The notes under the pieces were generated by a model. The model saw only the letters and a list, made by a program, of their open reading frames with translations, did no database searches and had not been told where the DNA came from. From assembly GCA_934090685.1 (NCBI GenBank), contig CAKOJN010000004.1, forward strand, positions 18,243 through 82,242: a stretch of 64,000 nt of DNA. The letters run 5' to 3'. The number at the start of each line of letters is the position of its first letter. Position 1 is the first letter of the stretch. Positions 61,155 to 64,000 of the stretch are shown here, in pieces. A program made the position numbers and the translations under genes. Origin of the DNA: an uncultured Bacilli bacterium (GTDB lineage Bacteria; Bacillota_I; Bacilli_A; RF39; UBA660).

Positions 61155-62375
61155 ATGAAAAATAAGATTATAGACTTATTCGCCGGGGCTGGAGGATTGT
61201 CAGAGGGTTTTAGAAGAAATGGCTTTGATATTGTTGCGCATGTTGAAATGGATAGAGATGCTTCATACACATTAAAAACAAGAGAAGCGTACTATTATTG
61301 TAAAGAAAACAACATGTTAAGTTTATACATAAGTTACTTAAAAGGAAAAGTATCAAGAGAAGAATTATATAAAAATATACCTAAAAGTGTTATTGATAGA
61401 GTAATTAACGAAGAAATATCAGATAATACGCTATCTTTAATATTTAATAAAATTGATAATATGCTTGAAAATGAAAAAGTTTTGGGGATTATCGGTGGAC
61501 CACCATGTCAAGCTTACTCTGTGGCTGGACGTTCACGTATGAAAGAAAAAATCAAAAATGATCCAAGAAATTATTTATATTTATATTACTTAGAATTTAT
61601 AAAAAAATATAGTCCTAGTTTTTTCGTTTTTGAGAATGTACAGGGTATTTTATCCGCAAAAAAAGGGACCATTTTTCAAGACATAAAAGATAGAATGAAA
61701 AAACTAGGATATACTATTGATTATAAGTTATTGGATTCAAATGACTTTGGAGTAGTACAACATAGAAAAAGGATAATAATAATTGGGTATAAAAGAGAAT
61801 TAAATATTGATTATCCAAAATTTGATAAAATTAATTTTAAGTATAGTATAAAAGATTTGTTTCAAGATTTACCAAAAATAAAAGATGATGAAATTAATAA
61901 CAATTATTCTTCAATTTCAAATGATTGCCTGGAAAACTTAAAAATAAGAAATAGATATTGGAATGTATTAACTTACAATCAAAGTAGAAAATTAAATGAT
62001 AATGATAAAGAAATATATAAAATATGTATTAAAAATAAAAACATCAAATACTGCGATTTGCCAAACAACTTAATAAAGCATAATAATAAGCAAGCATTTT
62101 TGGATAGATTTAAAGTTGTTGATTATGATAAGCCTTGTCATACAATGGTAGCACATATTTCAAAAGATGGACATCATTATATCCATCCAGATATAAATCA
62201 ATGCAGATCATTAACTGTTAGAGAAGCAGCTAGAATTCAAACATTTCCAGATGATTACTATTTTGAATCATCAAGAACCAGTGCATATAAACAAATAGGA
62301 AATGCTGTACCAGTATTTATGGCTGAACAAATAGCAAAAAAAATAAAAGAATCACTGCTTTTGAAACAAGAGTAA
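61155..62375 (+). CDS. dcm: C5 cytosine DNA methyltransferase (second, no endonuclease partner recognised)
   Basis: Motif I DLFAGAGGLSEGF, IV GGPPCQAYS, VI ENV, VIII QHRKR, IX TVREAARIQTFPD, X GNAVP; AAGGTGA RBS. Confidence 0.9.
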   Translation: MKNKIIDLFAGAGGLSEGFRRNGFDIVAHVEMDRDASYTLKTREAYYYCKENNMLSLYISYLKGKVSREELYKNIPKSVIDRVINEEISDNTLSLIFNKIDNMLENEKVLGIIGGPPCQAYSVAGRSRMKEKIKNDPRNYLYLYYLEFIKKYSPSFFVFENVQGILSAKKGTIFQDIKDRMKKLGYTIDYKLLDSNDFGVVQHRKRIIIIGYKRELNIDYPKFDKINFKYSIKDLFQDLPKIKDDEINNNYSSISNDCLENLKIRNRYWNVLTYNQSRKLNDNDKEIYKICIKNKNIKYCDLPNNLIKHNNKQAFLDRFKVVDYDKPCHTMVAHISKDGHHYIHPDINQCRSLTVREAARIQTFPDDYYFESSRTSAYKQIGNAVPVFMAEQIAKKIKESLLLKQE

Positions 62376-62384
62376 TTCTTTTTT

Positions 62385-63656
62385 TTATTTATAATAGATA
62401 TTATCTCCAACCCTATTTATCCATGATGAAAACTTTTGTTGAATATTTACTTTAATGTTATTTTTGAGTTGACCAATTTTTTCGCATTGCTTATAAATAT
62501 CATTAGTACAAATATCAAAGCAAACAATCAAATGCGAAAAAATATTTTCTTCATTAATATAAGAAAACATACAAATGTCTTGACAGCTGTAACTATAATT
62601 TTTTAAGTCCTTGAGTTTTTTGTAATTCTTTTCATAATCTTTTACGCCTATAATTAAAAATCCTTGGCAATATGTAGTATTTTTTGATTTAGATGCAAAA
62701 GTACAATTTGGAGTAATATTTAATGCAATTTGATAAATATAATCAAATTGTATTTCTTTTTCACAAAGTGCAGCAAACAAATCATCAATTAGCATATTTT
62801 CTGAGCTTTTTTCAGCCATACTTAGTTCTTTAAGATTATTATAACTATAATCTTTAATTTTATATAAACTTCCTGGTATATTTATATTACTTTTTTTTCT
62901 TTCAAACAACATTTCATAATTAAACTTAAACTTGTCAGTAAACGCAATTGATTCTTTAACATATTTAAAGTCGTAATTGTTCATTGAGTTAATTTTTGAC
63001 AACACATTATCACTAACTTTTGTATTCAATATTTCAAAAGCAGACAAAATTTTGTCTGGCATAAGCGTATTACCTACAAATATTCCTAGATTTTTATCAA
63101 TTAGTTTAGAATCAATTTTATTTGAATATGATTTTTCTATTAAAATATTAAATTCCTCTCTTACTGCCTTTAAATAATTTTCTTGCCATTCTAATAAATT
63201 AAATAAATTCTTATTTTGTTCTTCAAACTCGTCAAATATATCAGAAATTAAATTATTAAACGCATCATCAGACTCAGCATATAACACTTTTGATTTTTTA
63301 GCATTCAAAATTGCTATTGGTAAATTATTAGGCATTTTTTCTTCTATTTTATTTTTCAAACTTTCTATATCATCTTCATGTTGAGTCCACGCAACTATGA
63401 GTAAGTGTTTTTCACCATTTTCTGATATTGCTCTAATTATATTAGTAACTCTAGGAACATCAACAACTCCATTATCAAACGCCAAATCAACAAATACAAT
63501 TCTATACCCCAAATATAAATTATTAGTAACTAAATCATTAGGGTTAATATATAGAGTTTTTACACCTTTAGAAGAACAATAATTCATTAATTGTTGCACT
63601 TGTTCTTTTATATCATCAACAAATATTATACCAGTTGTAAATTTATTTAATTTCAT
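62385..63656 (-). CDS. receiver (CheY-like) domain protein with an unassigned ~300-aa Cys-rich output domain
   Basis: GGAGG RBS before ATG 63656. Receiver pattern: IIFVDD (D14, D15), IVFVDL (D57), LLIVAWT (T91), AILNAK (K120). The remainder has no recognisable motif apart from two CxDIC repeats. Confidence 0.65.
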   Translation of the reverse strand: MKLNKFTTGIIFVDDIKEQVQQLMNYCSSKGVKTLYINPNDLVTNNLYLGYRIVFVDLAFDNGVVDVPRVTNIIRAISENGEKHLLIVAWTQHEDDIESLKNKIEEKMPNNLPIAILNAKKSKVLYAESDDAFNNLISDIFDEFEEQNKNLFNLLEWQENYLKAVREEFNILIEKSYSNKIDSKLIDKNLGIFVGNTLMPDKILSAFEILNTKVSDNVLSKINSMNNYDFKYVKESIAFTDKFKFNYEMLFERKKSNINIPGSLYKIKDYSYNNLKELSMAEKSSENMLIDDLFAALCEKEIQFDYIYQIALNITPNCTFASKSKNTTYCQGFLIIGVKDYEKNYKKLKDLKNYSYSCQDICMFSYINEENIFSHLIVCFDICTNDIYKQCEKIGQLKNNIKVNIQQKFSSWINRVGDNIYYK

Positions 63657-64000
63657 CCCTATCCTCCAACTCAATTCTATATTTAACTCCACTGTATAAA
63701 CTAGGAATAGTATCATCAATTATATCAAAATCAATTTTGCCATTATGCATTGACACAATTTCATTTACTATAAATAAACCCAGTCCTAATCCATTTTTCT
63801 TTTTACTAACAAAAGGAGAAAAAAGAATATTTGGATCATCGACATTGAACCCAGGACCATTATCTGCAAAATATATAATATTTTTTTTGTCTTCTTTTTG
63901 CATTTTAACAAAAATTTCTTTGTCACTTTGTAACTCTAACCAGTAAACGGAATTATCAAACAAATTAATTAAAATTCTTAATATTTGGCTTTCGATTCCT
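63643..64000 (-). CDS. histidine-kinase-type GHKL ATPase, C-terminal part only (gene continues beyond the right edge)
   Basis: The frame is open to the window edge. N box ILINLFDNSVYW, G1 DNGPG, F box FSPF, G2 GLGLGLFIV. The track's Met at 63963 is an internal TTG. Confidence 0.75.
   Translation of the reverse strand, partial: GIESQILRILINLFDNSVYWLELQSDKEIFVKMQKEDKKNIIYFADNGPGFNVDDPNILFSPFVSKKKNGLGLGLFIVNEIVSMHNGKIDFDIIDDTIPSLYSGVKYRIELEDRDEIK

Follow-up and report, generated by a model that had tools for sequence, protein, structure and literature searches.

The right-hand end of a 64,000-nucleotide stretch of contig CAKOJN010000004.1 from an uncultured Bacilli bacterium (this whole stretch is referred to here as the window) carries three genes, together spanning about 4.6 kb, that encode a C5 cytosine DNA methyltransferase, a histidine kinase-like (HK-like) protein and a response regulator-like (RR-like) protein. 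This locus is a divergent example of a known, experimentally untouched type of module: the same trio was published in 2021 as a bioinformatic prediction, made in silico and without experiment (Bellieny-Rabelo, Pretorius & Moleleki 2021, PMC8011034), and the module is therefore not undescribed, as the original prediction on this DNA had labelled it. The three genes may represent a single functional unit, resembling either a restriction-modification (R-M) or an abortive infection system, that would be gated by a His-to-Asp phosphorelay, a proposal to which we give an even chance. The components of the module are listed below in window numbering, the minus-strand kinase-like gene being cut by the right edge (aa, amino acids).

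61155..62375, plus strand: C5 cytosine DNA methyltransferase (406 aa), the trio's modification component (Pfam, NCBIfam, PADLOC, orthologues).
62376..62384, no strand: 9-bp spacer between the convergent stop codons, without a terminator (sequence, terminator scan).
62385..63656, minus strand: receiver-like (RR-like) candidate effector protein, 423 aa plus stop (translation, profile search, AlphaFold2).
62388..62891, minus strand: alpha/beta domain at the C-terminus (aa 256-423), presumed to be the effector (conservation, separate AlphaFold2 model).
62703-62705, minus strand: codon of the invariant C318 of the RR-like protein.
62892..63281, minus strand: predicted all-helical middle region, aa 126-255, with the near-invariant W157 (LLEW motif) and N246 (model, conservation).
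63282..63656, minus strand: predicted receiver (CheY-like) domain, aa 1-125, with D14, D15, D57, T91 and K121 (conservation, profile, Foldseek).
63486-63488, minus strand: codon of D57, the putative phospho-acceptor of the RR-like protein.
63643..64000, minus strand: final 118 codons and stop of the kinase-like gene, covering the catalytic ATP-binding domain (Pfam, NCBIfam).
63662..63667, minus strand: Shine-Dalgarno sequence GGAGGA, 5 nt upstream of ATG 63656 and within the 3' end of the kinase-like gene (sequence).
~65,727 (window-equivalent), minus strand: start of the full-length kinase-like gene (L001 extension).

The original prediction had proposed that the contig be extended to recover the full kinase, and had considered that the latter might prove to be a fragment or a pseudogene. 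The extension was performed by exact-protein look-up, which identified two public contigs, L001 and L002, that continue past base 64000 and differ from the window by 4 mismatches over 6,275 bases and 0 mismatches over 6,028 bases, respectively. As these contigs extend the window with the same sequence, the kinase-like gene is intact, encoding 694 aa (positions 7930-10014 of L001), and is neither a fragment nor a pseudogene. Its stop codon (63643-63645) and the ATG of the RR-like gene (63656) produce a 14-nt overlap and, together with the Shine-Dalgarno sequence, this arrangement shows that the two genes are translationally coupled. The ATG at 63656 is common to all homologues, so that the longer, TTG-initiated open reading frame (ORF) obtained by mechanical listing is not the gene. 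At the other end, the methyltransferase gene stops at 62375 and the RR-like gene at 62385, leaving a gap of 9 bp, and a terminator scan found no terminator-like site across positions 57000-64000. The overlap, the GGAGG-preceded start and the closely spaced stops without a terminator hairpin had all been described correctly from the sequence alone.

The RR-like protein belongs to no family in Pfam, NCBIfam or PADLOC, and the Response_reg model of Pfam does not detect it at E<=1. Word-indexed homology searches reached close relatives only, and an exhaustive hidden Markov model (HMM) profile search was needed to find the wider family; across 1.84 billion representatives this search returned 113 relatives at E<=1e-3, only seven of which lie below 1e-30. 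A tblastn search of the protein against phage and plasmid records produced no match. Judging from these searches, the 423-aa protein represents a small subfamily within a wider, very divergent family. In an alignment of 63 relatives (mean column identity 18%), residues D14, D57, W90, G262 and C318 are invariant, and D15, P113, K121, W157, N246, P316, G332, R415 and G417 nearly so; T91 is conserved in the close subfamily. The receiver retains an intact acidic pocket, the threonine and the lysine. The receiver pattern reported in the original prediction thus stands with regard to D14/D15, D57 and T91, and is corrected with regard to the conserved lysine, which is K121, K120 being variable.

Comparison of the family profile with PDB sequences retrieved response regulators of solved structure, with alignment across beta1 to beta3 (best E-value 5e-4), and most of the 25 matches at E<=10 were receivers. 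The full-length AlphaFold2 model (predicted local distance difference test, pLDDT, 91.4; predicted template modelling score, pTM, 0.84) consists of a (beta-alpha)5 receiver at aa 1-125, an all-helical middle part up to ~aa 250 and an alpha/beta C-terminal domain, and its Foldseek matches in the PDB were exclusively receivers and flavodoxin folds, including PorX, FixJ, EutV and CpxR (E-values down to 5e-5). The predicted receiver fold of aa 1-125 is thus soundly confirmed by the AlphaFold model, Foldseek and the profile. No helix-turn-helix (HTH) or other DNA-binding output was found in the RR-like protein by Pfam, NCBIfam, PADLOC, the PDB profile search or Foldseek. These five approaches agree with the initial observation that no HTH or output domain could be named after the receiver, and uphold the view that a kinase is paired here with a receiver fused to a non-DNA-binding output.

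Since Foldseek analysis of the full-length model returned receiver and flavodoxin matches only, aa 228-423 were modelled alone by AlphaFold2 (pLDDT 88.6). This partial model gave nothing significant in the PDB or BFVD (best E-values 0.06 and 0.02, respectively), while the profile of the C-terminal domain had 0 matches among PDB sequences at E<=10. The C-terminal domain of ~170 aa is therefore a confidently modelled, predicted structure without a match in the PDB, BFVD or Pfam. Its motifs are PGxxY (with G262), TPxC (with P316 and the invariant C318), G332 and RxG (with R415 and G417), those of the wider family being PGNVY, ExTPxCD...K, FDFR and DIQxK...RxG. The cysteine of T-P-x-C is the sole polar residue of the output domain that is invariant family-wide, and no known catalytic motif fits it. 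Two readings of this domain were tried and set aside. MazF/PemK folds recurred as weak structural matches (target-normalised TM ~0.5-0.6, E-values 0.08-1), and this reading is unsupported, the profile-profile probability being 0.08% in a comparison with a small MazF/PemK alignment. A PD-(D/E)xK reading of ExTPxCD...K was dropped as the acidic residues are replaced in the subfamily, which disfavours any simple version of it. The output domain is the fastest-diverging part of the RR-like protein, as expected of a conflict-facing component, and, with no other nuclease or helicase consistently present, the C-terminus of the RR-like protein is the sole candidate effector.

The fragment of the HK-like protein that lies within the window exhibits the N (NLFDNSVYW), G1 (DNGPGF), F (LFSPF) and G2 (GLGLGL) boxes and matches Pfam HATPase_c (6.7e-15) as well as dozens of NCBIfam sensor-kinase models, and the ORF open at the right edge had indeed been recognised as a histidine-kinase-type ATPase. 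In the complete 694-aa protein, Pfam identifies HATPase_c_3 at aa 25-153 (6.7e-19) and HATPase_c at aa 579-667 (6.3e-19). The former is of the MORC/MutL/Hsp90 type, that is, a paraMORC-type GHKL ATPase, and the C-terminal part resembles the solved histidine kinases FixL, MprB and NtrB. A helix between the two ATPase domains bears F492-H493-D, and FH(D/E) at positions 492-494 is invariant in five homologues, including that of Rhizobium. The N/G1/F/G2 motifs and the N-terminal E29, N33, D36, DNGxGM and GEKGIGRF are likewise invariant, even in comparison with the Rhizobium homologue (28% identity), and the middle region (aa 161-440) is strongly conserved. Pfam HisKA has no match in the protein, and inspection of its sequence by eye revealed no long hydrophobic stretch; the position of a sensor is taken by the second GHKL ATPase, which is MORC-like and has kept its ATP-binding motifs intact. 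The PADLOC matches of the protein are limited to weak GHKL ones (PDC-M43B, 7.9e-5; MzaB, 4e-3). To judge from these motifs, a single polypeptide, the HK-like protein, combines an H-box with two ATP-binding modules that are both intact.

These features bear on the suggestion that the pair serves the host as a conventional two-component regulator of transcription and lies beside R-M genes by chance. Nothing speaks for this apart from the kinase and receiver domains themselves. L001 does contain two conventional HisKA kinases nearby, but these are located outside the mobile element described below, while the genes under study lie within it. Furthermore, the RR-like protein is devoid of an HTH or any other output that would bind DNA, no membrane or periplasmic sensor is apparent in the kinase, and the genes remain linked to a C5 methyltransferase in different phyla. 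We consider this explanation scarcely credible.

The methyltransferase scores 2.3e-70 against Pfam DNA_methylase and 5.3e-62 against TIGR00675 (dcm). Its best PADLOC model is DrmMII (PDLC02649; 2.3e-156, full length), far above the generic type II methyltransferase models. Class 2 DISARM was considered on the basis of this score and rejected, as DrmA, DrmB (DUF1998), DrmC (PLD) and DrmE are all absent among the neighbours; automated annotation could consequently mislabel the methyltransferase. Orthologues with 71-74% identity to the window methyltransferase adjoin every copy of the pair in the subfamily, whose HK-like and RR-like proteins are 58-69% and 35-58% identical to those of the window, respectively. 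A genome-wide locus search with the narrow subfamily alignment located only four loci in metagenome-assembled genomes (MAGs), from four GTDB species, and the window copy belongs to a small, divergent subfamily of Firmicutes and gut MAGs of low guanine-plus-cytosine content. At least six distinct genomic contexts harbour the trio, and these are listed here by locus.

L001, L002 and L010: trio beside Sau3AI R-M.
L009: trio beside a Sau3AI pair that has decayed to remnants.
L003: trio beside an N6/N4 methylase and ResIII helicase pair, with an insertion sequence between the receiver gene and the methyltransferase.
L004: trio beside Cas9.
L007: trio beside DpnII R-M.
L008 and L012: trio in other settings.

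L009 is a 97%-identical copy of the element in which the trio and the recombinase are intact, the Sau3AI endonuclease and methyltransferase persisting only as remnants at 10,594-11,376 (aa 292-481 and aa 343-426). At 11,371-12,578 of L003, the inserted sequence (Transposase_mut/MULE, 264 aa) and a 71-aa ORF separate the RR-like gene from the methyltransferase, all three genes of the trio remaining open. On the metagenomic contig L004, the trio (4,371-8,129) lies two genes away from a type II Cas9 gene, in keeping with a location in a defence island.

Among distant relatives (about 18-20% identity), gene order was established for the six loci with readable contigs, and all six display a co-directional C5 methyltransferase, HK-like and RR-like gene, in that order. 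The HK-like proteins of these loci measure 685-705 aa and the RR-like proteins 429-446 aa, and the genes often overlap and are sometimes accompanied by Vsr. On a plasmid of Rhizobium gallicum, the pair is followed by a small ORF and then by dcm-vsr-EcoRII. The stop-to-stop spacer within the subfamily is 9 bp in L001, L007 and L008, and 13 bp in L012. The tail-to-tail layout is a subfamily-specific order of a deeply conserved three-gene set, and the three genes are co-inherited across deep divergence and varied contexts, with no further partner conserved alongside them. The original prediction is upheld with regard to the link between the pair and the methyltransferase, which is real. Two of its other descriptions have to be abandoned: the methyltransferase is no orphan, as it is the most highly conserved of three co-inherited genes and stands beside the pair in six of six distant relatives, and its tail-to-tail convergence is not a new form of coupling, since it is a variant of gene order confined to the subfamily, the distant relatives being co-directional.

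How might such a module operate? The methyltransferase would mark host (self) DNA, and the GHKL module of the HK-like protein would act, via ATP-driven dimerisation, as an intracellular sensor of unmarked DNA or of another infection cue. Dimerisation would switch on autophosphorylation at H493 in the DHp helix, the phosphoryl group would move from H493 to D57 of the RR-like protein, and the phosphorylated receiver would release or activate the C-terminal effector, which may then restrict the invader or arrest the cell. The analysis itself establishes the identities of the domains, the intactness of the catalytic and phospho-acceptor residues, the translational coupling and the co-inheritance of the genes. 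The nature of the signal, which component controls which, whether the effector is toxic or nucleolytic, and a role in defence are inferred.

A number of results weigh against this proposal. No signature of a nuclease, a toxin or another catalytic activity could be detected in the effector domain; the ExTPxCD motif of the wider family becomes (N/D)ITPNCT in the subfamily (NITPNCT in the window copy), with loss of the acidic residues; and the residues that the subfamily and the wider family have in common are only G262, C318, P316, G332, R415, G417 and N246. No component contains an evident sequence-reading domain matched to the methyltransferase. The 423-aa protein has no match in PADLOC-DB, and it consequently equals none of the known or candidate defence proteins of that library. 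The published families PF19192 and PF19191 have no match, even at E<=10, in the window proteins, the 63 relatives or the Rhizobium pair, the models being possibly absent from the Pfam copy that was searched, so that this result speaks neither for nor against membership. Finally, a literature search for later experimental tests of the published family, including PDC-M43, found none.

A more specific form of the proposal is that the trio represents a distinct R-M-like class of immunity, in which a paraMORC-type, DNA-clamping ATPase fused to a histidine kinase would read the methylation state or foreign nature of DNA and relay it, by His-to-Asp phosphotransfer, to a receiver that would set free an effector of a previously unseen fold. 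This would entail a new effector chemistry and a new coupling of epigenetic self-marking to a phosphorelay. The universally conserved polar residues of that effector domain are only Cys (of TPxC), Asn and Arg, and we advance this form tentatively, as a possibility that falls short of an even chance.

The lack of a catalytic signature in the effector domain is also what one would expect if the genes formed a regulatory, two-component-like pair, in which the HK-like protein senses the state of nucleotides or DNA and the RR-like protein, without carrying out restriction itself, tunes the activity or expression of the methyltransferase or of a nearby R-M system through protein contacts. The authors of the 2021 study themselves speculated on R-M regulation (PMC8011034), and complete R-M sets with nucleases of their own are found near some relatives (EcoRII-C in L013, HNH in L014 and DUF2357/PDDEXK_7 in L016). 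However, the trio of the subfamily persists without a companion nuclease, remaining intact in L009 despite the decay of Sau3AI, and the companions differ between loci. Moreover, the RR-like protein shows no sign of a DNA-binding domain, and the fast divergence of its output domain is more readily reconciled with a conflict interface than with a housekeeping regulator. On balance, a purely regulatory pair seems unlikely, albeit worthy of serious consideration. Should the module do no more than regulate methylation, it would still feature an unusual, apparently soluble kinase with a GHKL ATPase as its "sensor".

The trio is carried on an element of ~11.1 kb, precisely inserted inside a gene for an N-acetylmuramoyl-L-alanine amidase (Amidase_3 followed by five LysM). 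Joining the fragment at 7219-7512 of L001 ('...HLNAGG') to the window frame ('DGAEVIY...') restores an Amidase_3 match over positions 1-173 of 174 (5.7e-30), and both junctions of the element have a GGTGG core in common. The element is reminiscent of the intervening elements that recombinases excise in spore-forming Firmicutes. The cargo comprises a small 4Fe-4S protein, a large serine recombinase, the Sau3AI R-M and the trio. The position of the trio beside a Sau3AI-type R-M pair and a serine recombinase, noted at the outset, was confirmed: the Sau3AI-family endonuclease matches NF040973 at 2.3e-152, with its own C5 methyltransferase and the recombinase alongside. The element and one ORF within it are located as follows.

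~55,083-55,090 (left junction) to ~66,178 (window-equivalent; L001 ~7,477-7,481): the element.
55,123-55,596, minus strand: 157-aa ORF with a CxxxxCxxC motif (Fer4_12, 3.7e-4, a weak match just below the Pfam cut-off), in the element near its left junction.

On the host side, beyond the element, positions 3,085-6,926 of L001 encode two membrane histidine kinases (each with HisKA, HATPase_c and a C-terminal receiver) and a UvrD-type helicase. The trio is best read as independent of the adjacent Sau3AI R-M that is carried on the same 11-kb element.

The mobile setting gives rise to another interpretation, namely that the trio stabilises the mobile element by addiction (post-segregational killing): loss of the element would dilute methylation and the kinase-receiver-effector arm would kill the segregant, with no dedicated anti-phage role. 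The 11-kb serine-recombinase element inserted in a host gene is in keeping with this, as is the location of the L003 trio on another recombinase element, and the 9-bp convergence without a terminator permits transcriptional interference. Interference of this kind is used by selfish R-M systems. Addiction is nevertheless compatible with defence, as classical R-M systems do both, and most of the distant relatives form a plain co-directional operon, several of them without mobile-element genes in their flanks. We regard addiction as the sole function of the trio as quite unlikely. As the window copy is compact, intact, carried on a small mobile element and separable from its neighbours, it would be a convenient experimental construct.

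This leads to the question as to how the module relates to systems that have been described. A canonical two-component system would have a DNA-binding output (OmpR, NarL or NtrC) and a HisKA domain, and here there is neither such an output nor a HisKA match, the HK-like protein possessing an N-terminal GHKL ATPase instead. With type II R-M systems, of which the adjacent Sau3AI pair is an example, and with class 2 DISARM (DrmMII), the trio shares a C5 methyltransferase as the presumed self-marking component; no endonuclease family or fold was recognised in the HK-like or RR-like protein by Pfam, PADLOC, Foldseek or the PDB profile.

The paraMORC/MORC proteins are GHKL ATPases encoded in R-M operons together with SF-II helicases and with HNH, restriction-endonuclease fold and TIR domains (Iyer, Abhiman & Aravind 2008, PMC2292703). 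The trio resembles them in its N-terminal, HATPase_c_3-type GHKL domain with intact ATP-binding motifs and in its link to cytosine methylases, with Vsr in relatives. In that report, the GHKL ATPase of paraMORC is followed by an S5-fold domain and no receiver is mentioned, whereas the present protein joins its GHKL domain to a histidine-kinase core and has a receiver protein as its partner.

Detocs (Rousset et al. 2023, bioRxiv 10.1101/2023.01.24.525353) combines DtcA, DtcB and DtcC, has a TPR-bearing kinase and, in 80% of systems, a PNP effector, and its relay from kinase to receiver-effector was found experimentally to be anti-phage, by abortive infection. A histidine kinase coupled to a receiver fused to a non-transcriptional effector is common to both, which makes Detocs the best functional analogy, and D57 matches D58 of DtcC in position. 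It could accordingly be argued that the pair is a divergent Detocs (DtcA and DtcC) that has lost DtcB, and the original prediction had called the module "Detocs-like". As a statement of family, this label does not hold: no ORF for a stand-alone receiver such as DtcB is present between the recombinase and the end of the element, the N-terminus of the kinase is a paraMORC-type GHKL ATPase in place of TPRs, the effector is unrelated to PNP (Pfam, Foldseek), and a methyltransferase partner is foreign to Detocs. PADLOC scans of both proteins, in a release whose Dtc content was not checked, returned no match to a model named Dtc. Descent from Detocs is, in our opinion, highly improbable. If the proposed phosphorelay mechanism is correct, the trio would be the second two-component phosphorelay, after Detocs, to be directly used as an immune or conflict system, and the first such relay to be tied to DNA methylation as a self mark, with an effector domain that has no known structural relative. 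It is this class, a methylation-tied phosphorelay with an unfamiliar effector fold, that is of interest, and the window locus does not define it.

The closest counterpart is the module of the 2021 prediction (PMC8011034). Its RR-like family, Response_reg_2 (PF19192), has no other known domain, and its HK-like family, HEF_HK (PF19191), mostly has the architecture HATPase_c_3, HEF_HK and HATPase_c, is soluble and contains a His followed by Glu/Asp. The two genes were linked in 91.6% of cases over 644 regions, R-M genes, and C5 methylases especially, were over-represented with Vsr conspicuous, and an origin from paraMORC ATPases was proposed. The window locus differs in that its methyltransferase is downstream and convergent, where the published one is upstream and co-directional, in that it has no Vsr, and in the change of ExTPxCD noted above. 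Several features are common to both: the RR-like protein, of ~420-450 aa, opens with a receiver-like domain (DD, D, T, K), which is the only known domain in it; the HK-like protein, of ~690-700 aa, carries HATPase_c_3 at its N-terminus, a DHp box in which His precedes Asp/Glu and, at its C-terminus, HATPase_c, the architecture of group 1 in that paper; and the two genes adjoin, with a C5 methylase beside them, the overlap being 14 nt and the methylase 9 bp away in the window. Finally, profile searches tie the 423-aa protein to relatives that have exactly the published operon order.

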